DNA of 64,000 bases from Planktothrix sp. FACHB-1365 (lineage in GTDB: Bacteria; Cyanobacteriota; Cyanobacteriia; Cyanobacteriales; Microcoleaceae): assembly GCF_014697575.1 (NCBI RefSeq), contig NZ_JACJSC010000008.1:29075-93074 (forward strand), read 5' to 3'. Positions within the stretch are counted from its first letter, which is position 1, and each line of letters starts with the position of its first letter. Position numbers and translations under genes: made by a program. Below are positions 26,624 to 52,966 of this stretch, piece after piece. The notes under the pieces were generated by a model. The model was not told the origin of the DNA. It was given only the letters and a program-made list of their open reading frames with translations, and did no database searches.

Positions 26624-26869
26624 AGGATTCAGAACTCAGAGTACAGGGGCAGAGGGTAGAGGGTCGTTCAGTACAAAATAGTAACGTACCCGTTATCAAT
26701 GAATGCCCAACTGCACGAGAGGTTTTGAAAGCCGGGATTTTTGGATGGTGGGGGGAAATCTTAATCCTGAATCGCCCTATATCCCCATCCAAAATCTGAG
26801 ATTTCCCCTTTAAAATAAGCTTAGGGCGTAGCTGTTGATTGTTAGATTTTGCCAATGTCAGCACCCCGC

Positions 26870-27090
26870 TCTGAAGAGACGGGGCTTCATGCCTCTAACT
26901 TTAGATAACTGACCAGCTATAGCCTAACGGCTACGTTTTCTGGATCATAATACCCACGAATGCGACGCTAGTTTGTGGCTCTATTGTTAACAATTAAACA
27001 GTTTTACGAGGGGTAAGACAGTGTTGTTAGCGCAAAAAGTTCGGAAAACATTGGCGAAGCGAACATTACCCTAGAAATAGGAGTTATTTT
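26870..27090 (+). ncRNA. Putative IscB omegaRNA (non-coding region immediately 5' of iscB)
   Basis: Established knowledge that the IscB omegaRNA is encoded directly upstream of iscB. This ~220-nt region has no ORF and abuts the iscB start. Structure not verified. Confidence 0.35.
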
Positions 27091-28368
27091 ATGTCTAATT
27101 ACGTCTTTGTAATTGATACAAATAAACAGCCTCAAAACCCAGTACATCCTGCTCAAGCTCGATTGTTATTGAATCAAGGTCAAGCTGCGGTTTATCGTCG
27201 TTATCCGTTTACTATTATCTTAAAGGAGTCAAAACCCGAATTAGAAATAGAACAAATCACTCTTAAAATTGACCCCGGTTCAAAAACCACTGGAATTACA
27301 TTAGTTCAAGGAAACAAAGTAATTTGGGGTGCGGAATTAACTCATCGAGGTCAAACAATTAAAATGTCTTTGGAATCTCGATGTTTATTACGTCGCTCCC
27401 GAAGAAATCGTAAAACTAGATATCGTCAACCTCGATTTCTGAACCGAAAACGTTTAGAAGGTTGGTTAGCACCCAGTCTTCAGCATCGAGTAGAAACAAC
27501 TCTAACTTGGGTCAGTAAATTAATTAGGTTTGCACCTATTCGTTCAATCATTCAAGAGTTAGTCAGATTTGACTTACAACAACTTGAAAATCCTGAGATT
27601 TCAGGAATTGAATATCAACAAGGCGAGTTACAAGGATACGAAGTTCGGCAATATTTATTGGAGAAATGGAGTAGAAAATGTGCTTACTGTGGGGTTAAAA
27701 ATACACCCTTAGAAGTGGAACATATTCACCCTAAATCCCAAGGCGGAACTGACCGAATTTCCAATCTTACTGTTGCTTGTCATGACTGTAATCAAAAGAA
27801 AGGAAATCAAGATATTCAAGATTTCCTATCAGGTAAACCTGACTTACTGCCCCGGATTTTGAAACAAGCTAAACAACCGTTAAAAGATGCTACAGCCGTT
27901 AATTCAACCCGATGGTTACTGTTTAATCGCTTAAAAGAAACGGGTTTACCTGTTTCAACTAGCTCCGGTGGTTTAACTAAATTCAATCGCACTCGATTAA
28001 ATCTACCTAAAACCCATTGGCTAGATGCAGCTTGTGTTGGGAAAGTTGAAACTTTAAAGGTGTTAACCAATAAACCTTTATTGATTCTGGCAACAGGACG
28101 TGGCACTCGTCAAATGTGTGGTACAGACAAATACGGATTTCCAACACGACATCGCTCACGAATACAGATTCACAAAGGCTTTCAGACGGGCGATATTGTT
28201 AAAGCTGTTGTTACTAAAGGTAAGAAAATAGGCTTTTATTTAGGTCGAGTTCTTTGTCGCGCATCTGGCAGTTTTGATCTTGTTACTCCTCATGGAAGAG
28301 TAGCAGGAATTAGTCACAAATATTGTCAATCAATTCATAAAAAGGATGGTTATTCTTATGGATTCTAA
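27091..28368 (+). CDS. iscB: IscB RNA-guided nuclease (OMEGA system; RRXRR/HNH/RuvC)
   Basis: PLMP-like N-terminus (…AAVYRRYPFTIIL), RuvC-I KIDPGSKTTGITL, Arg-rich bridge helix RRSRRNRKTRYRQPRFLNRKR, HNH CAYCG…LEVEHIHPKSQGGTDRISNLTVACHDCNQKKGN, RuvC-III HWLDAACVG. 425 aa. Confidence 0.85.
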   Translation: MSNYVFVIDTNKQPQNPVHPAQARLLLNQGQAAVYRRYPFTIILKESKPELEIEQITLKIDPGSKTTGITLVQGNKVIWGAELTHRGQTIKMSLESRCLLRRSRRNRKTRYRQPRFLNRKRLEGWLAPSLQHRVETTLTWVSKLIRFAPIRSIIQELVRFDLQQLENPEISGIEYQQGELQGYEVRQYLLEKWSRKCAYCGVKNTPLEVEHIHPKSQGGTDRISNLTVACHDCNQKKGNQDIQDFLSGKPDLLPRILKQAKQPLKDATAVNSTRWLLFNRLKETGLPVSTSSGGLTKFNRTRLNLPKTHWLDAACVGKVETLKVLTNKPLLILATGRGTRQMCGTDKYGFPTRHRSRIQIHKGFQTGDIVKAVVTKGKKIGFYLGRVLCRASGSFDLVTPHGRVAGISHKYCQSIHKKDGYSYGF

Positions 28369-29639: not shown

Positions 29640-30731
29640 TTAGGGTTGAAAGCGATCGCTTCTAAAATGATTTAATAAAGGATCATATTGTTGGTCTAAA
29701 ACCCAATTAGAAATTAATTCAGCCGTAACCGGAGCCAATAAAATTCCATTGCGATAATGACCGACGGCTAAGGTTAAATTTTCCCAAGAACTCGGCCCTA
29801 ATATGGGTAATAAATCTGGCGTTTCCGGTCGAAATCCCCACCAAAATTCTTGAAGGGGAAACTCTTTTAAAATCGGATATAATCCCATCGCTCCTGAGAG
29901 TAAGGTTTCAATACCATTGGGGGTTAAACCGCAGGTAAATCCAACATCTTCTGATGTTGCTCCAATCACAATTAAACCATCTCGACGGGGGACAATATAA
30001 ATATTAGAACCGAATAAAACCTGTTTCAAAGGTAAGGGTTCAAAATCATCAGGAACTCGAACGGATAACATTTGTCCCTTGCGGGGATATACAGGAATTG
30101 ATAATAATTCTCCAGCCCAAGCTCCCGTTGTTAAAATATAATGATCGGCTTTAAAATTACCTTGATTGGTGATAATTTTTGTTACCTTTTCTGGGGAAGT
30201 TACTAAGGTTTTGACTGTGATTTCTTCTATAATTTTAACCCCTAATTCCTGAGCCGCCCTGTACAAGGTTTTGACTAACCCCCGACGGTTATCGACTTGA
30301 CCATCCTGGGGAAACCACCATCCTCCCACAACGTCATCCCCTAACCCCGGTTGCTGCTGTAAAATTGCTTCTCGTTCAAGCCAGTAACTCGGTGTGTCTG
30401 GGGTTTGGGGTAAGATGATACAGTCGGGACGTTCGTAGACGGGGGCTAAAATCCCACAGGGCCAATATCCAGTTTCTAACCCCGTGAGTTCCTCCAGTTT
30501 GCGTGTCCAATCGTTATAGAGGGCGCGACTGCGTAAACATAAGTCTAGCATGGGGCCAGGAGGAATTTGTTCGGCTTGGGGGGCTAACATTCCGGCCCCT
30601 ACAATACCCGCCGCTTCCTGTTGATTTCGACTTAGAACAGTTACCGTTGCCCCTCGTAATTTTAACTCAACGGCTAGGGATAATCCGATTAAACCGCCTC
30701 CGATTAAAATAATTTCATTTTCTGGTTTCAT
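29640..30731 (-). CDS. FAD-dependent oxidoreductase, DAO/ThiO (glycine oxidase)-like
   Basis: N-terminal Rossmann IILIGGGLIGLSLAVEL and DAO-family length (363 aa). Confidence 0.55.
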   Translation of the reverse strand: MKPENEIILIGGGLIGLSLAVELKLRGATVTVLSRNQQEAAGIVGAGMLAPQAEQIPPGPMLDLCLRSRALYNDWTRKLEELTGLETGYWPCGILAPVYERPDCIILPQTPDTPSYWLEREAILQQQPGLGDDVVGGWWFPQDGQVDNRRGLVKTLYRAAQELGVKIIEEITVKTLVTSPEKVTKIITNQGNFKADHYILTTGAWAGELLSIPVYPRKGQMLSVRVPDDFEPLPLKQVLFGSNIYIVPRRDGLIVIGATSEDVGFTCGLTPNGIETLLSGAMGLYPILKEFPLQEFWWGFRPETPDLLPILGPSSWENLTLAVGHYRNGILLAPVTAELISNWVLDQQYDPLLNHFRSDRFQP

Positions 30732-30771
30732 AACGGCTAAATATTGATCTAATTAATTCTATTTTAACAGT

Positions 30772-32574
30772 TTAGGGTTTCTTTTTGGGTTTAACCGTCA
30801 CATAATTTTCACCGTTTAATTGAATAAATTGTTGACGTTTGGGGTCATAAACCCAGGCTTTAATCTTGTTCTCGCCTACAGGAAGAGATTCTCCTGAAAA
30901 AACAACTTGCCATCCGGCTCTTGTATAGGATTTCGATTTTAATAATTCAGCAATATCAGGTCTAGCCACTGTAATATAAGCATTGGCAAAAAATGATTTT
31001 TGATTGTTATAGGACAGAAAAATAAGATTAGGTTGTTGCTGGGAATCTGGGAGAATTGCCCACCCGCTTAAACTCATTGGCATTTTGCGGCGAATGACTA
31101 AAGGCTCATTATTGGGTAAAGGATGAAGATAACCATATTTTAAATTAGGGTCAGATACAAAAGGAATTGTTTCAGCAAAAGTTCTTAATTGTAAGGTTTT
31201 TAGTCTTTTTACCTCCTGTCTTAAAAAGGCAACATCAGGATAAATTCTGACTAAACAACTGTCTACTGAAGTGTTCAGAAAAGGAGAATCTTCCAGATAA
31301 TCAATCAGTGTTAAACAGGTTTGACCACTCTTTAAGAAAAAACTTAAATCCGTTGCTTGAATGACTGCATATTCTCCTCTCAATATTGTTAAACTCCCTA
31401 AAATACCGACTAACACACCATAAGTTAGGACAGTATTAATTCCCTGATTTTTTAATAATTCTAAAGCAGAAATTTTGAAGCGCACCCAAATCAAACTCAG
31501 TTGAAAGATAGCGACCAATAATAGTAAAGTATGAGTAGTAAAGCGAGAACTTTGTAGAATACCATAGTCGGCGCCTAAATAATAACGTCCCTTAGCAATT
31601 AGAACACTGGAAAGCAAGCCAAATAACCCAATGGATATCCAAGGAAAAGCGAAAGAATAGAGATGAGGATTTTTAATTAATAGTTCATAGAGGAGATAAA
31701 AGAAATAGCAAAGGATGATCAAACCCAAAACCCAAGACCATTGCAGGGAACCGATTAAGGGAGAAGCAATAATATTAAATAGAAAATGAATTAAAAATAA
31801 AGTAGGATTTTGAGCTAAATCAGGATTATTTTTAAACGCATCATTTTTTAACGCTTCATCAGGTTGATAACCTAAAAAATATATATAGGCAGAAATTAAA
31901 AATAATAAAATCCAAACTAAGAGACGCTTTCTTCGTTGAGTCAAACTTCCTTCTAACCCTAAAACACAAGGAATTAAAGCCAACCAAGATGCTAAACCTT
32001 GAGCCGAAGAAAAACTAGCAATTCCGCATAAAATAGCCGAGCCAATATATTGCCATTTAGTTGATAAAAACTTAGGGTAAGATAATATTAAACAAGCAGA
32101 AATAGTACAAAAATTAATTAAAAATATAGCAACCTGAAATCCCCAAAGCCAATTTTGATATTGAATCCAAGAAAAAAAGACTAAACTGGTTAGCAGGTTT
32201 GTTAGATGAAACAAGTTATCTTGTTGCTCAGGGTTTGTAAGTCGGGAGAGTTGATAAAGGCCTAAAAAGGTTAGAATTGCTAGTAAAAAGCTGCAAATTA
32301 GCTCTGCATAAATATTCCAGTTCAAAGTTAACCCTAAACCTAAAAAAATCAACTTCGGGAAGATTAATCGATGATAATTATGTAAATTAAATAAATCAAT
32401 AAATTGTAAAGTTCCGCTTTTAAAATTCTCGAATAAACTAGGTAATATCCATTGATCATGATAAGGGACATCCACTCCATAATCAAGAATAAACCAAGCC
32501 GTTGCCAAGGGAGGGATTAGATATAAAATAATTAAAGGAATCTGAGCATAAATAGATGATGCACGTAGGTTCAT
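30772..32574 (-). CDS. Large polytopic membrane protein with C-terminal soluble domain (possible GT-C/YfhO-like glycosyltransferase)
   Basis: More than 12 TM segments followed by a ~150-aa hydrophilic C-terminal domain. Family assignment is inference from architecture and neighbourhood only. Confidence 0.35.
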   Translation of the reverse strand: MNLRASSIYAQIPLIILYLIPPLATAWFILDYGVDVPYHDQWILPSLFENFKSGTLQFIDLFNLHNYHRLIFPKLIFLGLGLTLNWNIYAELICSFLLAILTFLGLYQLSRLTNPEQQDNLFHLTNLLTSLVFFSWIQYQNWLWGFQVAIFLINFCTISACLILSYPKFLSTKWQYIGSAILCGIASFSSAQGLASWLALIPCVLGLEGSLTQRRKRLLVWILLFLISAYIYFLGYQPDEALKNDAFKNNPDLAQNPTLFLIHFLFNIIASPLIGSLQWSWVLGLIILCYFFYLLYELLIKNPHLYSFAFPWISIGLFGLLSSVLIAKGRYYLGADYGILQSSRFTTHTLLLLVAIFQLSLIWVRFKISALELLKNQGINTVLTYGVLVGILGSLTILRGEYAVIQATDLSFFLKSGQTCLTLIDYLEDSPFLNTSVDSCLVRIYPDVAFLRQEVKRLKTLQLRTFAETIPFVSDPNLKYGYLHPLPNNEPLVIRRKMPMSLSGWAILPDSQQQPNLIFLSYNNQKSFFANAYITVARPDIAELLKSKSYTRAGWQVVFSGESLPVGENKIKAWVYDPKRQQFIQLNGENYVTVKPKKKP

Positions 32575-32623
32575 TCGGGATTATGATCAAAACATTGCCA
32601 GATTTTAAATGAAGTAAGCCAGA

Positions 32624-32989
32624 TTGTCAACTATGATTCAACACCTGTTTGTGAATACTGTCTCTGCGTTGTGTTATTCTTTAATTGATCAGCGTTTTCC
32701 ATCCGATTTTACTCCCCTAAAATTTCCCCATAATTCTGTTGTTAAGTTTGTTTTAGAGCAACAGAATCGAATGCCAGATTATCTCCAATTTCCCCTATTT
32801 TTATTAACGTTAATTTTTGATTTTTGGGGTTTGCTTCGTCGAGGTTCCTTTTTTCATTGTCAGTCTCCATCTAGTCGTCAACTTCAAGTTAAAGCTTGGA
32901 AAAATTCACCCTTCCAAGTTTGTCGAGATGTGATGCGATTTTATGAAAGTCTAGTGGTATTATATTGGCAATCTGATTCAATTCATTGA
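32624..32989 (+). CDS. Hypothetical small protein upstream of GMC oxidoreductase
   Basis: 121-aa ORF, no motif. Could be a small accessory subunit. Weak. Confidence 0.25.
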   Translation: MSTMIQHLFVNTVSALCYSLIDQRFPSDFTPLKFPHNSVVKFVLEQQNRMPDYLQFPLFLLTLIFDFWGLLRRGSFFHCQSPSSRQLQVKAWKNSPFQVCRDVMRFYESLVVLYWQSDSIH

Positions 32990-33012
32990 TAAACTGACTT
33001 ATTATTAATCCT

Positions 33013-34470
33013 ATGCTTCAACCCTCAGAATCTGATTTAAAAGTTGAAATTGCTATCATTGGTTCTGGCCCTGGAGGAGCGATTACCGCCTGTTTATTGG
33101 CTGAAGCCGGACGGGATGTTTTATTAATAGAAGAAGGCGACGATTTACCCTTAGAATCCTGTCAACCCTTTTCCGTTGAAGAAATGGTGCAAAAATACCG
33201 AAATGGAGGGTTAACCGCAGCCTTTGGTCAACCCAAAATTCAATATGTGGAAGGTCGATGTGTCGGGGGAGGAAGTGAAATCAATAGCGGACTTTATCAT
33301 CGAACACCCTCGAATATTTTAGAACAATGGCGCACAGAATTTGAAGTAGACGCTTTAACCGAAGTTGATTTAATTCCTCATTTTGAAGCTTGTGAACAAG
33401 CGGTTAACGTCTGTTATTTACCAGGGAAAGCTCCAACAGCATCTTTAAAATTACACGAAGGTGCGATACGTTTAGGTTGGCAATCTTTAGAAGTTCCTCG
33501 ATGGTTTCGTTATGAAGAATCTGATGAAACTTCCGTTCCCAAAGGAACTCGACAATCGATGACAAAAACCTTTATTCCTAGAGCGTTAAAAGCGGGATGT
33601 AAACTCTTAGCAAACACTCGGATTAACAGTCTTCAACAAACGGATAAAACTTGGATTTTAACAGGAACTCGTCAAGGGAATAATATCCCCGAAAATTCGA
33701 TTAAAATTCAAGCCGAAACCGTATTTGTTTGTTGTGGTGCGATTCAAACTCCAGCCTTATTAAGACGAAGTGGAATTAAAAATAATATTGGTAATTCATT
33801 AAGAACGCACCCAACTGTTAAAATAATTGCTCAATTTAATGAGGATATTAACGCCTTAGATATGGGGGTTCCTGTCCATCAAGTCAAAGAATTTTCACCT
33901 CGATTTAGTTTCGGATGTTCGATTAGTTCTCCTCCCTATTTATCGGTGGGAATGACTGACCATCCTCAATATACAGAAACCGTTGAAAAACAGTGGCAAA
34001 ACATGGCAATTTATTATGCTATGATTACTGGGGAAGGTTCGGGTACAGTCAGAAATATTCCCTTTTATCAAAATCCTTTTGTTCGCTATAAACTAACCTC
34101 TCAAGATTTAAAAGATTTATCAGAAGCGTTACAAAAATTAGCGTTATTATTGTTTGAAGCGGATGCAAAAATTCTCTATCCTAGTATTTCTAATACTTCT
34201 CCCTTGACCCATCCTCAAGATTTAAGTACAATAGCAGAAAAACTTCCGGTCAAACAAACAAATTTAATGACCGTTCATGTTTTTTCCTCCTGTCCAATGG
34301 GAGAAAATTTACAAAAATGTGCTGTTAATTCCTTTGGTCAAGTTCATGGATTCAATAATTTATATATTGCGGATGCTAGTTTACTTTGTACCGCACCAGG
34401 GGTCAATCCTCAAGGTTCAATTATGGCGATCGCTCGTCGAAATGCGTTAAAATTTTTAGATAAACTTTAA
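33013..34470 (+). CDS. GMC-family FAD oxidoreductase (choline dehydrogenase-like)
   Basis: N-terminal IIGSGPGGAITACLLAEAG…LLIEEG and C-terminal GMC_oxred_C signature FGQVHGFNNLYIADASLL…PQGSIMAIA. Confidence 0.8.
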   Translation: MLQPSESDLKVEIAIIGSGPGGAITACLLAEAGRDVLLIEEGDDLPLESCQPFSVEEMVQKYRNGGLTAAFGQPKIQYVEGRCVGGGSEINSGLYHRTPSNILEQWRTEFEVDALTEVDLIPHFEACEQAVNVCYLPGKAPTASLKLHEGAIRLGWQSLEVPRWFRYEESDETSVPKGTRQSMTKTFIPRALKAGCKLLANTRINSLQQTDKTWILTGTRQGNNIPENSIKIQAETVFVCCGAIQTPALLRRSGIKNNIGNSLRTHPTVKIIAQFNEDINALDMGVPVHQVKEFSPRFSFGCSISSPPYLSVGMTDHPQYTETVEKQWQNMAIYYAMITGEGSGTVRNIPFYQNPFVRYKLTSQDLKDLSEALQKLALLLFEADAKILYPSISNTSPLTHPQDLSTIAEKLPVKQTNLMTVHVFSSCPMGENLQKCAVNSFGQVHGFNNLYIADASLLCTAPGVNPQGSIMAIARRNALKFLDKL

Positions 34471-34610
34471 GGTAATGAACTAAATTAACCCCTTAACTCA
34501 GGAGTTTTACAAATGTCATCGCCGGACAAGCTGTTCCAATGGATTATAACCAATTATGAAGTCTTGTGTAATTAATTTTGTTGACCTACTTAATGCGGAA
34601 TAATAAAATT

Positions 34611-35675
34611 ATGGAATTAAAAACTAACCTTATTTTAGTTACAGGTGCATTAGGGTGGTTAGGAATTCGTTTAGTCGAATCATTGGTTAAAGGATTACCC
34701 GATTTTGACCCCCTGAATCAACCTCAAAATAACTTAAAAATTCGGTGTTTAATTTTACCAGAACAAGATGCAACCCTATTGCAAAGAATATCGGATAAAA
34801 TTGAAATTTATCAAGGAGATTTAAGAAACCCTCAAGATTGTGATCGCTTTTGTGAAAATGCCGAAAATGCTATTTTATTTCATACGGCTGGAATTATTCA
34901 CCCACAAAAAGTATCAGACTTTTATCAAATTAATGTAGAAGGAACAAAAAATCTATTAAATTCTGCGGTTTCTGCTAAGGTAAAACGAGCTATTATTGTA
35001 TCCTCTAATTCTCCCTGTGGTTGTAATCCCCATCCTGATCATTTATTCGATGAAATCTCTCCTTATCATCCCTATATGAACTATGGACGATCAAAAATGT
35101 TGATGGAATTGGCGGTTAAAAACTATCAGCAACAGGGAAAAATTGAAACCGTTGTTATCCGTCCGCCTTGGTTTTATGGCCCCCATCAACCTCAACGCCA
35201 AACCCTGTTTTTTAAAATGATTCGAGATGGAAAAGGGCCGATTGTTGGCGATGGAAATAATCTCCGGTCAATGGCTTATGTCGATAATCTTTGTCAAGGA
35301 TTATTATTAGCCGCTATCACGGAAAAAGCCAACGGAGAAACCTATTGGGTTGCTGATAAACGACCCTACTCTATGAATGAGATTATTGATACCGTTGAAC
35401 GATTATTAGAAACAGAATTTCAACAAAATTGTGTTCATAAACGATTAAAATTACCGGGATTAGCCAGTGAAGTTGCTTTAGTTGTTGATGGAACATTACA
35501 AGCTCTAGGATTCTATCATCAAAAAATTCATGTTCTCTCAGAAATGAATAAAACCATTGCTTGTTCGGTTGCTAAAGCTCAACGAGAATTAGGTTATCGC
35601 CCTACAATTTCCTTAGAAGAAGGAATGCGAAGAAGCTTAACCTGGATTTTTGAAAATTATGGAGGATTAGATTAA
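34611..35675 (+). CDS. NAD-dependent epimerase/dehydratase (extended SDR)
   Basis: ILVTGALGWLGIRLVESL Rossmann motif and the SDR catalytic YxxxK region (YGRSK). Start set at MELK (the longest ORF begins at 34578). Confidence 0.75.
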   Translation: MELKTNLILVTGALGWLGIRLVESLVKGLPDFDPLNQPQNNLKIRCLILPEQDATLLQRISDKIEIYQGDLRNPQDCDRFCENAENAILFHTAGIIHPQKVSDFYQINVEGTKNLLNSAVSAKVKRAIIVSSNSPCGCNPHPDHLFDEISPYHPYMNYGRSKMLMELAVKNYQQQGKIETVVIRPPWFYGPHQPQRQTLFFKMIRDGKGPIVGDGNNLRSMAYVDNLCQGLLLAAITEKANGETYWVADKRPYSMNEIIDTVERLLETEFQQNCVHKRLKLPGLASEVALVVDGTLQALGFYHQKIHVLSEMNKTIACSVAKAQRELGYRPTISLEEGMRRSLTWIFENYGGLD

Positions 35676-35677
35676 TC

Positions 35678-36256
35678 ATGGTTAGCCATATTGTTGTCAC
35701 AGAAGGATTAGTTTATCGGGAAGATTTTGCTCAATACTACTTTTTATCAAATTATTTTGAAGCGGTTTTACAACAAGTTTTAAAGCAGGTTCCTGTTGAG
35801 GAAAAAGTATTTATTTCTCCGGGTAATTCCTTTGATTGTCCTGAATCAGAAGAACAGTGTGCTGCAAAATATCTTTTACATTACCGTCCTGAACTCCAAG
35901 TTATTGTTCCTGACAATGTTAAAGATCGTCCCTATTTAGATACGTTTGATAATGCTAGATTATTAAAAAAATGGCTAGAACAACAGGAACAATGGCCTTT
36001 AGGAGAAGTGATTTTATATTGTAATCAACCCCATGCTTTACGAAGTCAGTTAATGTTTAAGCTGTGTGGTTATAACGTCCAAGAAGTTATTACTTCTTAT
36101 CCTGAACTTGCAAATAGAACGATGCCACTACGTCTTATTTATTATCATTATTTACCTGCTAATTTGATTTACGAAGCGATTGCTTTAGTCTATGATTTAA
36201 TTAAGGTGTTTCACTGGATTATTTGTTATAAAAACCTCTATCTATTAAAACCATGA
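35678..36256 (+). CDS. Hypothetical protein
   Basis: 192-aa ORF, Cys/Tyr-rich, no recognisable motif. Translationally coupled to the downstream GT-C gene (ATGA overlap at 36253). Confidence 0.35.
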   Translation: MVSHIVVTEGLVYREDFAQYYFLSNYFEAVLQQVLKQVPVEEKVFISPGNSFDCPESEEQCAAKYLLHYRPELQVIVPDNVKDRPYLDTFDNARLLKKWLEQQEQWPLGEVILYCNQPHALRSQLMFKLCGYNVQEVITSYPELANRTMPLRLIYYHYLPANLIYEAIALVYDLIKVFHWIICYKNLYLLKP

Positions 36257-37899
36257 TTAAAAAAGGCTACTTCCTAGGAATTTTAATTGTTTCTATTGTT
36301 CTGAGTGTTATTATTTACTTTCCGATTATCAATTCTTTTTTTCTATCCGATGATTTTACCTGGATTTATCAAATTCAAACTCAAGGAATATTTGGAGTAT
36401 GGACAACTGCACCCGATGTTTTTTTTAGACCGATAATTTCCATCCTTTTATTTTTAGATTATCAAATTTGGGGCTTAAATCCTGTAGGTTATCATCTGAC
36501 TAATATTATCTTTCATGGAATCTGTAGTTTTTTTGTCTATTTGATTTCCTCTCAGCTATTAGTTCATAGTCATTTCTCTAAAAAAACAAGCCAATCCATT
36601 TCTATAATTGCAGGTTTTTTATTTCTAGTTTTACCCAGTCATGTAGAAGCAGTTACTTGGATTTCTGCACGTTCCGATGTAGTAGCAACTTGTTTTTTTC
36701 TAGCCGCCTTCAATAGCTATTTATATTACAAACATAACTCTAATAAGTTCTGGCTACTCAGTTCTTATGTCTGGTTTATATTCGCTTTACTTTCCAAAGA
36801 ATCAGTCATTATCTATCCTGGATTAATTTTAGGGTATGAAATTTATCAATTTTTTCAAAATAAAAAACCTCTAAAGCAGCTTTATAAGGTGATGATTTTA
36901 CCAATATTAATGGCTTCTATTTTTCCGATTTATTTAGGAATGAGATATTTAGGATTAAAGCAATTATTAGGTGGATATGGATCTCAAACTCATCTTAATT
37001 TTTCTGTCCCAATTATACTCAGGGGACTTGCTAGTAGCCTTAGAATTATCATACCTCCATTACCTCAATCTGGAGAAGTTCAATGGCAATGGTGTTTTCT
37101 CATCTTCATCAGTTTAGTTACGATTTTTGTGATTCAATATTTTCGGTTAGGGGGGATTTACCGAGAACAAGCTAAGTTATTGCTATTTCTAATCTATGCC
37201 TTTTTAATCTCAATGTTTCCCGTGATTAATATTAGAGTTTCACTGGGGGATACACAAGCTGAAAGAATTCTTTATTTACCGTCTGTTTTTTTCGTAATTC
37301 TACTGGTATTTATTATCAGTTTTCTGGTTAAAAAGAAACATACTATTATTTTTTTAGCAGTAATTTTTTCAATATTTTTGATAAAAAATATCTATATCGC
37401 TAATAAAAATTGGCAGATAGCTAGTCAAATTTCTCATCAGTTGATTAAAAGCATTAATGATCAGAGGGGAAATCAACCCGGATTACTTATTATTAATGTT
37501 CCCGATAATTTTAAAGGAGCTTACATTTATAGAAACGGTATTTATCACGCAGCACAACTATTTTCTATTCATAACATTAAGATAAAATTTTTGAATATTG
37601 CATCGTTTCACAATCTGCTGAGTCCTGAAAACCAACTCAAAGTTGCAGAAATTGAGCCCTATACTTATCAAATTCAATTAGTCGGTGAAGGAATTTATTT
37701 TATGAATGTTAGTTTACCTTTAGAACAAACGTTTAAACGAAAAAAATTTACTATTGAAAATTTTAATTTTAAAACTCATCAATCTTATCAAATTAAAATT
37801 AAAAACAATATTCCCATTGAGCAAATTTTCTATTATTCTCAAGGTCAACTTTTACCTGTTCCACACCGCAAGCTAAGTTCAACCTTTACGAATGGGTAA
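36253..37899 (+). CDS. GT-C-fold membrane glycosyltransferase (PMT/TMTC/ArnT-like)
   Basis: N-terminal polytopic region with the …FFRPIISILLFLDYQIWGLNPVGYHLTNIIFHG… motif characteristic of GT39/TMTC-type GT-C enzymes. C-terminal hydrophilic domain. Confidence 0.55.
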   Translation: MIKKGYFLGILIVSIVLSVIIYFPIINSFFLSDDFTWIYQIQTQGIFGVWTTAPDVFFRPIISILLFLDYQIWGLNPVGYHLTNIIFHGICSFFVYLISSQLLVHSHFSKKTSQSISIIAGFLFLVLPSHVEAVTWISARSDVVATCFFLAAFNSYLYYKHNSNKFWLLSSYVWFIFALLSKESVIIYPGLILGYEIYQFFQNKKPLKQLYKVMILPILMASIFPIYLGMRYLGLKQLLGGYGSQTHLNFSVPIILRGLASSLRIIIPPLPQSGEVQWQWCFLIFISLVTIFVIQYFRLGGIYREQAKLLLFLIYAFLISMFPVINIRVSLGDTQAERILYLPSVFFVILLVFIISFLVKKKHTIIFLAVIFSIFLIKNIYIANKNWQIASQISHQLIKSINDQRGNQPGLLIINVPDNFKGAYIYRNGIYHAAQLFSIHNIKIKFLNIASFHNLLSPENQLKVAEIEPYTYQIQLVGEGIYFMNVSLPLEQTFKRKKFTIENFNFKTHQSYQIKIKNNIPIEQIFYYSQGQLLPVPHRKLSSTFTNG

Positions 37900-37951
37900 A
37901 TTTCGTTTATGATACGACAAAACAAATGGTGTTGAGGACAAACAGAACTTT

Positions 37952-38977
37952 ATGAAGCACTTAATTACGGGAGGATCGGGGTTTTTAGGAAATTTAATTG
38001 CCCGTCGATTATATGAACGGGGAGAAGACGTTAAAATTTTAGATATTTGGGAAGATCCGACCCGTCCCCCAGAAATTGAATTTATTAACTGTGATATTTG
38101 CGATCGCACTGGGGTTGCAAAAGCGATGGAAGATATTGATATTGTCCATCATAATGTGGCTTTAGTTCCCTTAACAAAATCTGGTAATAAATTCTGGGAA
38201 GTCAACGTTGAAGGAAGCAAAATCGCCGCCGAAGAAGCGGTAAAAGCCGGAGTCAAAAGCTTTATTCACATGAGTTCTAGCGCTTTATTTGGTGAGGCTG
38301 AATGTCCGATTACAAATGATACCCCGACAAAAGCTGTTGAGATTTATGGACGAGCAAAATTAGCTGGAGAATTAGCAGTTAGAGACATTTGTGATCAAGC
38401 GGGTTTACCCTTAATTGTGATTCGTCCCCGGACAATTTTAGGAGAAGGCAGATTAGGAATTTTTCAGATATTATTTGAATGGATTCAAGAAGAAAAAAAC
38501 GTTTATGTAATTGGGAGTGGGAACGTTAAATTTCAGTTTGTTCATGCTCATGATTTAATGGATGCCTATCTTCTAGCCCTTGATTTAGGTCAACCCGGAA
38601 TCTATAATGTCGGAACCGATCGCTTTGGCACGTTACGAGAAGGATTAGAACATTTAATTGAATATGCAGGAACAGAGTCTCAAGTTAAAAGTTTACCCAC
38701 TGGATTAACCATTGGAACCTTACAACTGTTAGACTGGATGGGGTTAAGTCCTCTCGCCCCTTGGCATTATTTAACCTATCACAAAGAATTTTATTTTGAT
38801 GTAGATCCCCTGCTAAAATTAGGCTGGAAACCAAAATATTCTAATGATGAAATGTTCCGAGAAAGTTATGATTGGTTTCAAAAGAACTATAATCAACTGC
38901 AAGCGGAAAAAGCAGGTTCAGCCCATCGGCGCCCCGTCAAAGAAAAATTACTTTGGGTGTTAAAACAACTCTCCTAA
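37952..38977 (+). CDS. NAD-dependent epimerase/dehydratase (UDP-sugar 4-epimerase-like)
   Basis: ITGGSGFLGNLIARRL Rossmann motif and YGRAK catalytic motif. 341 aa. Confidence 0.8.
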   Translation: MKHLITGGSGFLGNLIARRLYERGEDVKILDIWEDPTRPPEIEFINCDICDRTGVAKAMEDIDIVHHNVALVPLTKSGNKFWEVNVEGSKIAAEEAVKAGVKSFIHMSSSALFGEAECPITNDTPTKAVEIYGRAKLAGELAVRDICDQAGLPLIVIRPRTILGEGRLGIFQILFEWIQEEKNVYVIGSGNVKFQFVHAHDLMDAYLLALDLGQPGIYNVGTDRFGTLREGLEHLIEYAGTESQVKSLPTGLTIGTLQLLDWMGLSPLAPWHYLTYHKEFYFDVDPLLKLGWKPKYSNDEMFRESYDWFQKNYNQLQAEKAGSAHRRPVKEKLLWVLKQLS

Positions 38978-39070
38978 CTTAATGGTAGGGTGCGTAAGCC
39001 CAGCGCACGCGCCATCTAACATTTTAAGGATGATTAAGAATAATTCAATCTCCTATTCTAATAACAAATC

Positions 39071-39433
39071 GTGAACAATATCAACTCAGCTAATTGGATT
39101 TCATGGAGTTTAGTTTTAATTGCGGCTATGAACACAGGAATTGGCAATTTATTGCTTAAAAAATCTCGACTAGAAGCTCCTGATCCCAGTATACTCACTC
39201 TATTATTATCTCCTTGGTTTATGGCAGCAATCCTAGTCTATGGAATTAACTTAATTGTCTTTGCTAAAGCCTTAGATCGCTTACCTGTTTCCATTGCTTA
39301 TCCTGTCTTTGCTGCCATTGGTTTTAGCTTAGTTGCATTGATGGGAAGCTTATTTTTAGGAGAGCGTGTTGGATTAAATCAAATGATAGGATTAAGCTTT
39401 ATTGTGGCTGGAATTGTGATTATGTCTCGTTAA
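39071..39433 (+). CDS. 4-TM SMR/EamA-like protein resembling ArnE/ArnF polyprenyl-phosphate-sugar flippase subunit
   Basis: 120 aa, 4 TM. The C-terminal half LDRLPVSIAYPVFAAIGFSLVALMGSLFLGERV…GIVIMS matches the ArnE-type pattern. Confidence 0.5.
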   Translation: MNNINSANWISWSLVLIAAMNTGIGNLLLKKSRLEAPDPSILTLLLSPWFMAAILVYGINLIVFAKALDRLPVSIAYPVFAAIGFSLVALMGSLFLGERVGLNQMIGLSFIVAGIVIMSR

Positions 39434-39487
39434 AATCAAAAATACTGTTGAACTCATTAGACTAAACTGTGAGGAGTTAAACCATTC

Positions 39488-40567
39488 ATGAAACCAGCAA
39501 ATCAAGACCATTATTCGGGTGATTCTACTTCTGTATTAGAGACAATTTCTGAGACGACTGATCCTTTATTTAAACCAACTCCATCTAAAACTATTCCCCC
39601 CCTAATTAAACTTCTGCGTCCCCACCAATGGACAAAAAATTTATTCTGTTTAGCCGGACTTTTGTTTGGGGGTAGACTATTACAACCCCAGAGCATTTTG
39701 CTATCAGGATTAACGGTAATTTTTTTCTCAGCAATGGCATCAGCCATTTATATTTTTAATGATATTCAAGATCGAGAACGCGATCGCCAGCATCCGAAAA
39801 AAAAGTATCGTCCCCTTGCGAGTGGTCAAGTTTCAGTTAAAATGGGGTTAGCGATCGCAATTCCTTTAGCAATCATTTCCCTATGGGGTGCATATTTTTT
39901 AGGAATTCCCACATTAATTTGCATTTTACTTTACGCTATTAACAATATTGCTTATTCTCTCAAACTCAAAAATATAGCTTTATTTGATGTTAATTGTATT
40001 GCCTTTGGATTTGTATTAAGGCTATTAGCCGGAATTTATGCGTTAGGAGATATGCCGACGGCTTGGATTGTTTTATGTACCTTTTTTCTAACTTTATTTT
40101 TAGGGTTTTCTAAACGGCGTTCTGAACTTTTATCTCTCTTGCATTTTCAAAACCATCAAGACAGTTTAGAGTCTGAAAACCTAACTCAAGACAATGTAAA
40201 ATCAGCACCGTTAGAACGCTCTTATTTACACTTATTTTATCAACGGGGAAGAAAAAACCAACAACGTCCAGTTCTCTCTCAATACACCTTACCTTATTTA
40301 GATTCTCTGCTCAATAGCACAGCAACAATGACCATTATGTGCTATGCTTTATTTACAATAACATCAGGTAAAAATCCTTCTTTAGTGATTACTGTTCCGA
40401 TTGTTTATTATGCCGTAATGCACTATAAATGGTTAGTTACAGTTTTAGCTGAGGGAGAAGAACCCAGCCGTATTTTAATTCAAGATCCTACGATTAAATG
40501 GAGTTTATTAATTTGGTTAATTTCTTATTTAGCAATCCTGTATTTTAAGATTGATTTATTTCATTAA
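39488..40567 (+). CDS. UbiA-family prenyl-phosphate phosphoribosyltransferase (decaprenyl-phosphate 5-phosphoribosyltransferase, Rv3806c-like)
   Basis: LRPHQWTKNLFCLAGLL…NDIQDRERDRQHPKKKYRPLASG closely parallels the mycobacterial DPPR synthase motifs (NDxxDxxxD…HPxKRxRPxAxG). Second Asp-rich motif and 8-9 TM. Confidence 0.7.
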   Translation: MKPANQDHYSGDSTSVLETISETTDPLFKPTPSKTIPPLIKLLRPHQWTKNLFCLAGLLFGGRLLQPQSILLSGLTVIFFSAMASAIYIFNDIQDRERDRQHPKKKYRPLASGQVSVKMGLAIAIPLAIISLWGAYFLGIPTLICILLYAINNIAYSLKLKNIALFDVNCIAFGFVLRLLAGIYALGDMPTAWIVLCTFFLTLFLGFSKRRSELLSLLHFQNHQDSLESENLTQDNVKSAPLERSYLHLFYQRGRKNQQRPVLSQYTLPYLDSLLNSTATMTIMCYALFTITSGKNPSLVITVPIVYYAVMHYKWLVTVLAEGEEPSRILIQDPTIKWSLLIWLISYLAILYFKIDLFH

Positions 40568-40633
40568 TTTGATGACAATCGATCCAAATACTATCTCTGA
40601 ATAATAAAAGTCGATCAGACATTAAAACAAAAT

Positions 40634-41074
40634 TCAAATTCTTAAATAACTGGCTGTAGGACTCAGTGGCAAAAGCACGAGAGTTTGTTTCTGCAAATCT
40701 AATTCAATACCCAAAGCTTCTAAGGGGATAACGCCCAATAACGGATCTGCTCCTGCGGGCAATTCTATGCACTCAAAAGTTGCGTCTCTTCCCATTAATG
40801 AAATTTTTGCATCTTCAAAAATGCGTGCCGTACCGATACCAGTTGTCGTTGCTACAGGTACTGTTTTCAGAAGTTTTAAACCGAGTTGAGCGATCGCATC
40901 CTGCGGCAAGCATAAAGTAGTTGCTCCCGTATCTACCAGCACATCTTTTATTGTAATAGAACGGACTCGATCAGCAGGAATTAGATTATCTTCCGCCTTA
41001 CCTTGGTCTAGCCGATTTGTGATTGTCAACGTTGTGGTAATTTTTCCCATTGGTTCTTTGATAGTTGATGTCAT
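40634..41074 (-). CDS. Retropepsin-like (clan AA) aspartic protease
   Basis: Catalytic VLVDTGATTLCLP motif. ~145 aa from internal Met MTSTIKEP. Confidence 0.55.
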   Translation of the reverse strand: MTSTIKEPMGKITTTLTITNRLDQGKAEDNLIPADRVRSITIKDVLVDTGATTLCLPQDAIAQLGLKLLKTVPVATTTGIGTARIFEDAKISLMGRDATFECIELPAGADPLLGVIPLEALGIELDLQKQTLVLLPLSPTASYLRI

Positions 41075-41176
41075 GATTATATCTCTCGGTAGCATTTTAG
41101 ATTGATTACAACTTTCACGGAAAAGAGCGATCACGCCCGATTGAACATCATTTTACCATATCTATTGTACCTAGCC

Positions 41177-41421
41177 TGTAGGGGCGGGTTCGCCTGAATA
41201 TTTGACAGCCATCAACAAATTATAAAAACCCGCCCCAACCCCACCGAAAAATTAACAATTAATTCAATTTAATGGTTATTCAGTGATAGTGATTTGGGAT
41301 TATTTTTTGGATGGGGGCGGGTTTATTAAGATTATCGGTGGGTGACATAATTTATCGGTGGGGGCGGGTTTATTAAGGTTATCGGTGGGTGACATAATTT
41401 ATCGGCGAACCCGCCCCTACA
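41177..41421. mobile_element. MITE-like non-autonomous element with perfect 18-bp terminal inverted repeats
   Basis: tgtaggggcgggttcgcc at 41177..41194 and its exact reverse complement ggcgaacccgcccctaca at 41404..41421. Interior holds a 49-bp tandem duplication (gggggcgggtttattaag…ttatcggtgggtgacataatttatcgg x2), an inverted copy of the gcggg core, and no ORF. Confidence 0.5.
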
Positions 41422-47724: not shown

Positions 47725-48591
47725 GTGAAATTAGCAGTCTACGGTAAAGGCGGAATTGGTAAATCAACCACAAGCTGTAATATCTCAGCCGCTTTAGCCA
47801 AACGAGGTAAAAAAGTCCTGCAAATTGGCTGCGATCCCAAACACGACAGCACCTTTACCCTCACAGGATTTTTAATCCCCACGATTATTGATACCTTGCA
47901 AGAAAAAGACTTTCATTACGAAGATATTTGGCCAGAAGACGTGATTTATAAAGGCTATGGGGGTGTCGATTGCGTAGAAGCAGGTGGCCCTCCAGCAGGT
48001 GCAGGATGTGGCGGTTACGTTGTGGGAGAAACCGTCAAACTCCTCAAAGAACTCAACGCCTTTGACGAATACGATGTAATTCTGTTTGACGTCTTAGGGG
48101 ACGTGGTTTGTGGTGGGTTTGCTGCCCCTCTCAACTATGCCGACTATTGCGTCATTGTCACCGATAATGGCTTTGATGCCCTATTTGCTGCCAACCGCAT
48201 CGCTGCCTCAGTCCGCGAAAAATCCCGTACCCACCCTTTACGATTAGCAGGATTAATCGGAAATCGCACCTCCAAACGGGATTTGATTGAAAAATATATT
48301 GAATCCGTTCCCATGCCTGTTTTAGAGGTATTACCCTTAATCGAGGACATTCGGGTGTCCCGCGTTAAAGGAAAAACCTTATTTGAGATGGCCGAAAGTG
48401 ATCCATCCCTCAACTACGTTTGTGATTATTATCTGAATATTGCCGATCAACTGCTGTCACAACCCGAAGGAGTAGTTCCTCAAGACGCGCCAGATCGGGA
48501 TTTATTCACCTTGTTATCAGATTTTTATCTAAATCCGACTCAACCCCTTGTTCAAAGTCAGGAAGATGAGCTAGACCTGATGATGGTTTAA
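47725..48591 (+). CDS. chlL: Light-independent protochlorophyllide reductase iron-sulfur ATP-binding protein ChlL
   Basis: GTG start. [24 protein letters not shown] Walker A, NifH-like Cys ligands. 288 aa. Confidence 0.95.
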
Positions 48592-50235: not shown

Positions 50236-51654
<1,419 letters not shown>

Positions 51655-51760: not shown

Positions 51761-52966
51761 ATGACAAATTCTCCAAATGAAAAACTAAAATTGAATAATG
51801 AAAAGGATGGTATTCAAGATGAGACAGATATTGATTTAGAAGATTTTGATGATGACAATATAATTGAAGCAGATGATGAAGGAATTAATGAACCATTTGA
51901 TCCAACTAAAATTAGAGTTGATACTCGACCAATGACCATCGACCTTATGCTCAACCGAATTAAACATGGAGAGCTTGAACTTTCACCTGATTTTCAGCGT
52001 AAAGAAGTTTGGACTGATGTTGCTAAAAGTAAATTGATTGAGTCTATTCTGATTCGTATTCCTTTACCTGCTTTTTATATTGATGCTACTAATGAAGATA
52101 AATGGATAGTTATAGACGGATTACAACGATTAACAGCACTAAAACAATTTATCCTAGAACCTGATTCTAATGATAATCAATTAGGGAAAAATAAATTAAA
52201 GTTAACTAAGCTAGATTATCTAAAAGATCTTGAATGCAAAACTTATGATGAACTTCCTCGTAAATATCAGCGTCGTATCCTTGAAACTCAGTTACTATTA
52301 TATGTGATTGAAGAAGGTACACCTACTGAAGTTAAGTACAGTATATTTAGACGAATTAATACGGGTGGAGTTCCTCTATCACCCCAAGAACTTCGCAACG
52401 CACTTAATCAAGGAAAAGCCACTAAATTATTAGCTAAATTAACGGCAATAGACGAGTTTAAAAAAGTTACAAAACTCGATCAATCTAAAAGGCAACAAAG
52501 AATGATTGATCAGGAGTTTGTCTTGGGATTTTTAGCCTATACACTCAATAATTATTATGATTTTCCTAAATCAAAAAGTAGAGATGAATTTTTTCATAAA
52601 ACAATGGAGAAGATTAATAAAACTTTATCAGAGAATCAGATCAAGGAGATCGAATTTAATTTTAAACGTGCGATGGTTGCAGCTTATGATATTTTTGGAG
52701 AAGGAGCTTTTCGGAAAAAACCTAAAAGTGGTTCTAAGCATAACCCCATTAACCAGGCTTTATTTGAAGTTTGGTCTGTCAGTCTCAGTCAACTTAGTAA
52801 CTTGGATTTAGAAAAACTTAAAGAAAGAAAAGAAATTTTAATCAATCAATTTATTAATCTAGTAGAAAATGATTCTGAGTTTTTTAGATCAATTTCTCAA
52901 GCTGCTGAAAAAGTAACAGTTAGGTTTAGTAAAGTAGAACAATTAATTCAAGAGGTACTAGGATGA
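51761..52966 (+). CDS. DUF262 (ParB/Srx-like, GmrSD N-terminal-type) domain protein with acidic N-terminus
   Basis: …FQRKEVWTDVAKSKLIESILIRIPLPAFYIDATNEDKWIVIDGLQRLTALKQF matches the DUF262 core including the DGQQR-type motif (DGLQRLT). No DUF1524/HNH tail visible. AT-rich codon usage. Confidence 0.7.
   Translation: MTNSPNEKLKLNNEKDGIQDETDIDLEDFDDDNIIEADDEGINEPFDPTKIRVDTRPMTIDLMLNRIKHGELELSPDFQRKEVWTDVAKSKLIESILIRIPLPAFYIDATNEDKWIVIDGLQRLTALKQFILEPDSNDNQLGKNKLKLTKLDYLKDLECKTYDELPRKYQRRILETQLLLYVIEEGTPTEVKYSIFRRINTGGVPLSPQELRNALNQGKATKLLAKLTAIDEFKKVTKLDQSKRQQRMIDQEFVLGFLAYTLNNYYDFPKSKSRDEFFHKTMEKINKTLSENQIKEIEFNFKRAMVAAYDIFGEGAFRKKPKSGSKHNPINQALFEVWSVSLSQLSNLDLEKLKERKEILINQFINLVENDSEFFRSISQAAEKVTVRFSKVEQLIQEVLG

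Follow-up and report, generated by a model that had tools for sequence, protein, structure and literature searches.

A putative lipid-linked pentofuranose glycosylation cluster with a GMC/SDR tailoring module in Planktothrix sp. FACHB-1365

Lipid-linked pentofuranose donors were long held to be peculiar to mycobacteria, and their use was recognised as a general bacterial strategy in 2024. In the systems described by Kelly et al. (PNAS 2024; PMC11127046), a polyprenyl-phosphate 5-phosphoribosyltransferase (PPPRS), a flippase and a GT-C glycosyltransferase together attach alpha-linked pentofuranose side chains in the periplasm, with auxiliary epimerases that are the SDR ORF13 for xylofuranose (Xylf) and DprE1/E2 for arabinofuranose (Araf); the double epimer, lyxofuranose (Lyxf), is not known in glycans. 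Here we describe a block of nine genes of the cyanobacterium Planktothrix sp. FACHB-1365, located on a stretch of 64,000 nucleotides (contig NZ_JACJSC010000008.1, positions 29,075 to 93,074; the whole stretch is called the window below). This single 9.8-kb block encodes a putative PPPRS, a flippase candidate and two GT-C folds, a set that is co-conserved across genera. The nine genes probably constitute (at a probability of roughly 0.7 by our estimate) a self-contained periplasmic glycosylation system that uses a lipid-linked pentofuranose and joins the three-component design to a new tailoring module, which comprises the orphan protein S121, a GMC-family flavoprotein and two extended SDRs (SDR1 and SDR2). 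An earlier sequence-only reading of the window had proposed a lipid-linked pentose pathway, which was right in kind; it did not, however, establish arabinose as the product, and it left the second SDR and S121 unexplained.

Gene content of the cluster and its UbiA-fold enzyme

Nine open reading frames (ORFs) are listed within window 30772-40567 (Table 1). Eight of them are found on the plus strand with spacings from a 4-base overlap to approximately 107 bases, and M600, the sole gene on the minus strand, diverges from them across a 49-bp intergenic region. Six ORFs were named by Pfam and NCBIfam (the GMC protein, the two extended SDRs, a weak DUF218, an SMR protein and a UbiA-family protein), while M600, M548 and S121 have no family match in either database. 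The ORFs named by the sequence-only reading are all present where it had placed them, and two genes inside the block, the 121-aa S121 and the DUF218 ORF, had been overlooked. The G+C content of the cluster is 0.30-0.38, with its minimum over M548, and that of the flanks 0.40-0.47 (window 30000-40000); this low G+C content, together with the absence of P. agardhii and P. rubescens among the UbiA matches listed, suggests an accessory, possibly horizontally acquired module. A scan of 30500-41300 for promoters and terminators returned counts equal to the shuffled expectation, and says nothing on operon structure.

Table 1. Genes of the cluster and of its flanks, with coordinates in the window.
Feature	Position	Strand	Basis or remark
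M600, predicted GT-C-fold glycosyltransferase, 600 aa, ~11-13 transmembrane (TM) helices	30772-32574	-	AlphaFold2 (AF2) model
S121, orphan 121-aa protein	32624-32989	+	no family; GMC partner
GMC-family FAD oxidoreductase	33013-34470	+	PF00732 107.8 bits (cut-off 23), PF05199 65.8 bits (cut-off 24.6)
SDR1, extended SDR, proposed GMC ketoreductase partner	34578-35675	+	PF01370 108 bits
DUF218-like protein	35678-36256	+	PF02698 27.1 bits, just under 27.6 cut-off
M548, predicted GT-C glycosyltransferase, PMT_2/TMTC-like YHLTN type, 548 aa	36253-37899	+	AF2 model, FRP...YHLTN..H motif
SDR2 (type 2a), second extended SDR	37952-38977	+	PF01370 137 bits, best NCBIfam match HpnA-like
SMR-family 4-TM protein (ArnE-like), proposed polyprenyl-P-pentose flippase	39071-39433	+	PF00893 47.4 bits (cut-off 23.7)
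UbiA-fold protein, predicted polyprenyl-phosphate 5-phosphoribosyltransferase (PPPRS/DPPRS type)	39488-40567	+	PF01040, NCBIfam, Rv3806c match
ThiO	29640-30731		flank, unrelated to cluster
Aspartyl-protease-like, transglutaminase-like, DUF928 and ShlB-type transporter genes	downstream flank		unrelated to cluster

Among the four best NCBIfam matches of the UbiA-fold protein, three are models of decaprenyl-phosphate phosphoribosyltransferases (DPPRS; 227.7, 186.6 and 130.6 bits), against 28-37 bits for the models of chlorophyll synthase (ChlG), 4-hydroxybenzoate prenyltransferase (UbiA) and heme O synthase. The mycobacterial enzyme Rv3806c (8j8j) is its only sequence match in the PDB (phmmer, E=1.5e-31), and a protein of P. 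mougeotii is 96% identical to it. In an alignment of 10 sequences, both the NDxxDxxxD motif of loop II (N91, D92, D95, D99) and the RxxE motif of loop IV (R210/R211, E213) are invariant, and the residues of these motifs are needed for activity in C. youngae ORF15 and in Rv3806c. The DPPRS match is split by a hydrophilic insertion of approximately 35 residues (residues ~218-252) between the two halves of the fold, which is confined to homologues from Planktothrix, the Lyngbya group and Microcoleus; homologues without it carry the NCBI name decaprenyl-phosphate phosphoribosyltransferase.

The contacts of phosphoribosyl pyrophosphate (PRPP) in the cryo-EM structure of Rv3806c were transferred to the window protein through a HMMER alignment. 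Identical residues were found for R22 (R44 in the window protein), K28 (K50), Y70 (Y88), N73 (N91), D77 (D95), K87 (K105), R90 (R108), Y138 (Y156) and K143 (K161), while Q135 is replaced by N153 and Y157 by F175, a Phe variant that occurs in mycobacteria too. The contacts kept include residues for the ribose, the 5'-phosphate and the pyrophosphate of PRPP. According to the Rv3806c paper, the UbiA superfamily does not share the phosphoribose-binding sites of Rv3806c; since the residues for the ribose and its 5'-phosphate are kept in the window protein, PRPP is the likely donor. Judged from these alignments, the protein likely belongs with the Rv3806c-type polyprenyl-phosphate phosphoribosyltransferases that use PRPP, in agreement with its earlier designation as a DPPR-synthase homologue, and both the NCBIfam scores and the PRPP-contact residues place it apart from the chlorophyll and quinone prenyltransferases. 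An assignment as an EboC, chlorophyll or quinone prenyltransferase was considered and dismissed on the NCBIfam scores.

Co-conservation and the tailoring proteins

The distribution of the cluster was surveyed from two anchors. For the first, UbiA, one genome per species was searched by tblastn with the nine window proteins, and loci were counted in which a UbiA homologue of at least 43% identity had 6 kb or more of sequence to either side (n=28), next to loci with a more distant UbiA (n=16). S121, GMC and SDR1 were found together in 23 of the 28 loci, a second SDR in 24 and an SMR gene, adjoining UbiA, in 22; the trio was present in one of the 16 distant loci, with a UbiA that is 42.9% identical. 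The cyanobacterial carriers are Planktothrix, Limnospira/Arthrospira, Limnoraphis, Lyngbya, Capilliphycus, Oscillatoria and Spirulina subsalsa, and carriers among metagenome-assembled genomes (MAGs) belong to the Verrucomicrobiales, Binatia, Pseudomonadales, Limnocylindria and Acidobacteriaceae and include a deltaproteobacterium. The S121-GMC-SDR1-SDR2 set thus travels with a UbiA clade through Oscillatoriales, Verrucomicrobiota, Binatia, Chloroflexota, Acidobacteriota and others, and SMR and GT-C genes recur in the module across phyla. The flanking genes differ among genera, and the block therefore behaves as a self-contained module. The genes are co-directional (M600 excepted) and strongly co-conserved, and they recur together in other genera with unrelated flanks, a grouping far beyond chance; the co-conservation on which the sequence-only reading had made its proposal depend is thereby borne out.

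For the second anchor, metagenomes were searched with a profile of S121. A GMC gene lies directly downstream of S121 in all 62 loci that had room for it, and the 26 well-covered S121 loci include 24 with SDR1, 22 with a second SDR and 19 with a UbiA homologue. Many of the non-cyanobacterial S121 loci have immediately upstream a UbiA with an N-terminal HAD domain (DLDGTL motif). This HAD-UbiA architecture is that of the characterised C. youngae ORF15, whose HAD domain removes the 5'-phosphate (PMC11127046). The tailoring genes are thus tied to two PPPRS architectures, a strong indication that the PPPRS product is what they work on.

Two departures from the common layout were observed. Lyngbya sp. 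PCC 8106 and L. aestuarii (L020, L046) have only SMR-UbiA within 10 kb, and UbiA is missing from a Lyngbya-like metagenome contig (L093) that has M600-S121-GMC-SDR1-DUF218-SDR2; in the Lyngbya lineage, the cluster seems to be divided between two loci. Loci L005 (8852-12583) and L052, one of which is a Gemmataceae MAG, have an SDR beside a close UbiA homologue (50-51% identity); the place of S121-GMC is taken, at least in L005, by a FAD_oxidored (PF12831) flavoprotein of 568 aa, possibly as a further flavoprotein/SDR variant. When the neighbours of the distant UbiA homologues (<43% identity) were clustered in a search for DprE1/DprE2-type partners, no common flavoprotein was found, with a simple ORF calling that gave spurious antisense ORFs in high-GC contigs.

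S121 gave no match in Pfam, NCBIfam or the PDB, and a profile search of Pfam and the PDB was also empty. The family is represented by 462 clusters among 1.84 billion proteins, and is characterised by two invariant motifs, RMPD(Y/F)L and RDxxxFYE(S/T). Two independent sequences join it in frame to the GMC protein: P0412 (618 aa), which matches S121 over residues 9-114 (46% identity) and GMC over residues 139-618 (59% identity), and a 616-aa ORF of L135 (1313-3163) with its GMC domains at 201-605. Because of these fusions, S121 is best read as a subunit of the flavoenzyme, and as the obligate partner of GMC it may serve in membrane association or substrate presentation. In another sequence, P0487, S121 is joined to a PMT_2-like GT-C, possibly through a gene-call merge.

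No curated NCBIfam family fits the GMC protein (the best match, MftG, scores 68.8 bits against a cut-off of 400), which is only distantly related to the solved GMC enzymes. Its GSGPGG FAD motif (residues 17-22), H422 and N465 are invariant in the orthologues, and we take H422 and N465, the latter located approximately 43 residues past the His, to be the catalytic pair. Enzymes of the GMC family oxidise primary or secondary alcohols, and the proposed role of the window protein is that of an oxidase of a sugar hydroxyl on polyprenyl-P-ribofuranose.

Both SDRs have intact TGxxGxxG and YxxxK motifs, with TGALGWLG at residue 22 and YGRSK at residue 169 of SDR1, whose true start is probably a few codons past the TTG, and TGGSGFLG at residue 6 and YGRAK at residue 132 of SDR2. 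A function of SDR1 as a 4,6-dehydratase-like enzyme, after its best PDB match DesIV, was ruled out on the replacement of the Asp-Glu pair by Asn-Ser (SSNS). Among cyanobacteria, no other protein of the cluster is as highly conserved as SDR2 (82-97% identity). When compared over 54 complete modules, GMC and SDR1 diverge continuously (SDR1 at 56-90% identity), whereas the second SDR is bimodal with respect to the window SDR2, with 38 loci at 64-97% identity, 16 loci at 43.7-46.5% and a gap between them. Both classes, 2a and 2b, occur with stand-alone and with HAD-fused UbiA, and the overall pattern suggests an invariant trio of S121, GMC and SDR1 combined with an exchangeable second SDR. None of the proteins S121, GMC, SDR1 and SDR2 has a signal peptide, and tailoring should therefore be cytoplasmic and precede flipping; Kelly et al. 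likewise argue that the ORF13 epimerase acts in the cytoplasm before export (PMC11127046).

Membrane proteins and the proposed pathway

Sequence searches of Pfam and the PDB with M548 and M600 gave no match, and their fold was seen by structure prediction alone, in models built from alignments of 46-48 homologues (pLDDT 91.8 for M548 and 93.7 for M600). The top of the Foldseek list of M548 consists of GT-C enzymes only (PglB, STT3, ArnT, DPY19, ALG12 and Pmt4, with probability 1.0 and TM-scores of 0.40-0.46). D33 is invariant among the M548 homologues and D34 is found in 45 of 46, while R59, H81, H88, H130, E132, R338 and Y341 are invariant in all 46. Both proteins have a conserved Asp just past TM1 (D33/D34 in M548, D40 in M600) and, around residue 340, an Arg-aromatic pair that is likewise conserved. 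Both also have a C-terminal beta-rich domain (residues ~410-535 of M548), which in M600 is a beta-sandwich (residues ~480-600) that resembles the FN3/Ig-like modules of glycoside hydrolases. The homologues of M548 are named 'protein O-mannosyl-transferase' or 'RgtA/B/C/D-like' by their sources, and M600 is 99% identical to a P. mougeotii protein. On the strength of these confident models, both are GT-C glycosyltransferases, which upholds what had been claimed for the protein with the FRP...YHLTN motif and extends it to the second polytopic protein.

The flippase candidate belongs to the SMR family, as the sequence-only reading had it, and its best NCBIfam match is indeed ArnE; its 38.7 bits are, however, far below the equivalog cut-off of 92, so that it is an SMR member and not an ArnE equivalog. 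Its helices TM2-4 align with EmrE (E=5e-7), and its TM1 (residues 9-30) contains no Asp or Glu. Proton-coupled exporters of the EmrE type have an essential Glu in TM1.

The stop codon of the DUF218 gene overlaps the M548 start by 4 bases. Eighteen cyanobacterial loci have DUF218, that of Oscillatoria not being among them, and the non-cyanobacterial loci are without it. Verrucomicrobial UbiA loci (L038, L042, L047, L048 and L050) carry a stand-alone HAD hydrolase gene, usually adjoining UbiA, the UbiA locus of a Pseudomonadales MAG (L044) has a DUF212 (divergent PAP2) gene at 10917-11357, and in soil-type loci a HAD domain is fused to UbiA. DUF218 of the cyanobacteria stands at a place comparable to that of HAD or DUF212 elsewhere, in a complementary pattern. 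Its candidacy as the 5'-phosphatase, or for a step related to the lipid carrier, is speculative, and the dephosphorylation may come from elsewhere in the genome.

In the scheme that we propose, the UbiA-fold enzyme would form the lipid-linked phosphoribose from PRPP, as its conserved catalytic and PRPP-contact residues suggest. The 5'-phosphate would then be removed, perhaps by DUF218 or by a housekeeping enzyme, a step that forms a gap in the scheme. In the cytoplasm, S121-GMC would oxidise a ribose hydroxyl to a ketone, which SDR1 would reduce from the other face to give the epimer; this pair, proposed because of the enzyme classes and their strict co-conservation, would correspond in function to DprE1/DprE2. 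SDR2 may introduce a second stereochemical or redox change, for example a further epimerisation, after which an SMR dimer would flip the lipid-linked sugar to the periplasm, and M548 and M600, by their fold, would transfer it to one or more envelope acceptors, aided by their periplasmic beta-rich domains.

Several points weigh against this scheme. It assigns putative roles to the proteins from sequences and models, and the operon structure was inferred from gene spacing alone. The UbiA-fold protein narrowly misses the curated DPPRS cut-offs (227.7 against 234 for NF008977, and 186.6 against 207 for NF008978), as a result of its insertion of approximately 35 residues, and K208 of Rv3806c is not conserved in it, being aligned with P261, next to the invariant R260. 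No HAD or PAP2 domain that could account for the 5'-phosphatase was found by Pfam and NCBIfam in the nine window proteins. Paralogues of M600 exist in P. agardhii and P. rubescens, both of which are absent among the UbiA matches listed, and the link of M600 with the donor is therefore weaker than that of M548. Moreover, several related Planktothrix loci consist of a seven-gene core without an adjacent GT-C. The modules of other lineages hold different GT-Cs (PMT_2, or in L150 a GT87 located after the module). The core loci without an adjacent GT-C and the M600 paralogues elsewhere point to a GT-C component that is variable, as in serotype-specific Gtr systems. Finally, three redox proteins exceed the needs of a single epimerisation, and since GMC-family enzymes also act on primary alcohols, more than one oxidation site may be possible.

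The last two points bear on which pentose is made. One possibility, which we hold as tentative, is that the pathway leads to polyprenyl-P-D-arabinofuranose, with GMC in the role of DprE1 (2'-OH to 2'-keto), one SDR in that of DprE2, and the other SDR redundant, regulatory or acting on another substrate. A flavoprotein oxidase with an NAD(P)H reductase fits the logic of DprE1/DprE2, the known non-mycobacterial PPPRS systems that add Araf have such an oxidase/reductase pair (PMC11127046), and the PF12831 flavoprotein and SDR beside a close UbiA in L005 and L052 suggest that the pairing recurs; with no VAO-type DprE1 in the cluster, GMC could have displaced it. Yet nothing fixes the oxidation at C2, the second SDR is conserved as strongly as SDR1 (22 of the 26 loci), which a dispensable role would not predict, and no report of D-Araf in these cyanobacteria was found in a literature search of incomplete coverage. 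The mimicry of DprE1/DprE2 proposed by the sequence-only reading holds for the oxidation-reduction logic, as judged from enzyme class and context, but not for the proteins themselves: neither GMC nor the extended SDRs are homologous to DprE1 (VAO) or DprE2 (classical SDR), from which they differ in fold class. One flavoprotein and one reductase would be enough for Araf, and the conserved second SDR argues for more than this, or for a heteromeric reductase.

A different pentofuranose is also conceivable, although we would not assert it: xylofuranose by epimerisation at C3, lyxofuranose by epimerisation at C2 and C3, or a keto- or uronic pentose, with the classes SDR2a and SDR2b specifying the end products. 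Such diversity would be in line with the three redox proteins per module, with a second SDR that is bimodal while GMC and SDR1 vary continuously, and with the range of primary and secondary alcohols that GMC enzymes, as a family, can oxidise. There is also precedent in the single SDR ORF13, which turns undecaprenyl-P-Ribf into undecaprenyl-P-Xylf, auxiliary epimerases being the means by which the pentose is diversified; lyxofuranose is, however, absent from any solved glycan (PMC11127046), and the two SDRs might act as a heteromer on a single step. In its most far-reaching form, which we consider unlikely, S121-GMC/SDR1/SDR2 would be a new and widespread way of remodelling polyprenyl-P-ribofuranose that alters more than one stereocentre or makes another oxidation, giving an unrecorded pentofuranose such as D-lyxofuranose, with the SDR2 classes specifying different sugars. 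If so, the envelopes of Oscillatoriales, and of many Verrucomicrobiota, Acidobacteriota, Chloroflexota and Binatia from soil and water, would bear a pentofuranose that is new to the glycan record.

It is very improbable that the UbiA-fold protein is a conventional prenyltransferase whose quinone-, eboC- or hopanoid-like product is tailored by GMC and the SDRs, with the membrane proteins as unrelated neighbours: most UbiA-family enzymes do prenylate aromatic acceptors, the best NCBIfam matches of the SDRs include the lipid-acting OleD, HpnA and SdmB, and the GMC family includes cholesterol and fatty-alcohol oxidases, but the DPPRS model reaches 228 bits where those of prenyltransferases reach 17-39 bits, the phosphoribose-contact residues are conserved, relatives are fused to a phosphoribose-phosphatase HAD domain, and SMR and GT-C genes are recurrent within the module across phyla.

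Genomic setting and comparison with known systems

Several other elements were found in the window. A full-length HEARO/omega RNA (RF02033, 155 bits; 26857-27069) is directly followed at its 3' side by a 425-aa ORF with RRXRR and HNH domains (27091-28368, plus strand). Together they form an IscB-omegaRNA (OMEGA) element at 26857-28368 on the plus strand, which is located between two FHA-domain genes, approximately 2.4 kb from the cluster. Farther downstream, the genes for ChlL (47725-48591) and ChlN (50248-51654) are split by a 499-aa DUF5331 ORF, and past ChlN, a GmrSD_N-domain protein and an AAA_15/DUF3696 ATPase (51761-54075) resemble a defence pair.

A periplasmic pentofuranose system built from the nine genes would matter beyond this strain. 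Its carriers include filamentous cyanobacteria that form blooms or are grown commercially (Planktothrix, Limnospira/Arthrospira, Lyngbya) and members of several poorly studied phyla, and the module suggests a third way of tailoring the donor, by two extended SDRs and a GMC protein whose small partner is obligate. If the proposal is true, it would provide a new enzymology parallel to the drug target DprE1 and a function for the orphan S121 family, and it would point to a component of cyanobacterial envelopes or sheaths. With regard to novelty, a literature search of incomplete coverage, which included few subscription journals, found no paper that joins GMC to PPPRS or DprE1, or the pathway to cyanobacteria. 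The earlier statement that no such pathway is characterised in a cyanobacterium agrees with this result; the module is, however, not specific to cyanobacteria, and a system of this kind was described in 2024.

Among the systems with which the cluster can be compared, the ArnT/ArnE/ArnF system for lipid A aminoarabinose shares the combination of an SMR-type undecaprenyl-P-pentose flippase with a GT-C, and ArnT is found among the structural matches. Its donor is derived from a nucleotide sugar by a GT-2 enzyme, whereas that of the cluster would be made from PRPP by a UbiA-fold enzyme, and the SMR genes are paired in the Arn system and single in the cluster. The D-Araf pilin glycosylation of P. 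aeruginosa Pa5196/PA7 (PPPRS, DprE1/E2 homologues and the GT-C TfpW) provides an example of a PPPRS-based donor in a Gram-negative bacterium whose GT-C modifies a protein, but has true DprE1/E2 homologues where the cluster has GMC and SDRs. No pilus genes are present near the cluster in the window. At another locus (L135 5273-9688), a HAD-UbiA, an S121-GMC fusion, SDR1, SDR2b and a 745-aa polytopic protein are followed by a T2SS-F protein that is PilC-like and by one that has a prepilin N-methylation motif, an order which hints that some modules may glycosylate type IV pilins, by analogy with P. aeruginosa Pa5196.

The mycobacterial pathway (Rv3806c, Rv3807c, DprE1, DprE2, Rv3789, Emb/Aft) begins with an enzyme homologous to the UbiA-fold protein of the cluster, and has a small 4-TM flippase candidate as well; both have GT-C transferases, with AftA and AftB among the structural matches, and the logic of a flavoprotein that oxidises and an SDR that then reduces is likely shared. 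The proteins that perform these steps are analogues at most, since DprE1 is of the VAO type (FAD_binding_4) and DprE2 a classical SDR, whereas the cluster has a GMC protein (PF00732/PF05199) and extended SDRs (PF01370). A PAP2 phosphatase is part of the mycobacterial pathway, with none in the cluster, and the carrier is presumably C55-P for the cluster compared with C50-P in mycobacteria.

The system of C. youngae O1/O2 (ORF15-ORF14-ORF12 and ORF13) has, like the cluster, a UbiA-fold PPPRS that uses PRPP and carries the NDxxDxxxD and RxxE motifs, a flippase that is a small or secondary transporter, and a GT-C with a C-terminal beta-rich domain, and in both the lipid-linked ribose would be tailored in the cytoplasm before export. 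ORF12, the founder of GT136, has Asp31, R349/Y350 and a C-terminal carbohydrate-binding module, a layout to which that of M548 and M600 is similar when compared by description only (PMC11127046). Many relatives of the module possess a HAD(PRP)-UbiA fusion like that of ORF15, whereas the UbiA of the window is without the PRP domain, and the flippase is an SMR protein in the cluster and a MATE protein in C. youngae. The two systems also differ in tailoring, which is performed by a single SDR (ORF13) in C. youngae and would involve S121-GMC and two extended SDRs in Planktothrix. The cluster is thus probably of a three-component kind known since 2024, while the S121-GMC/SDR1/SDR2 remodelling module is most likely previously undescribed.

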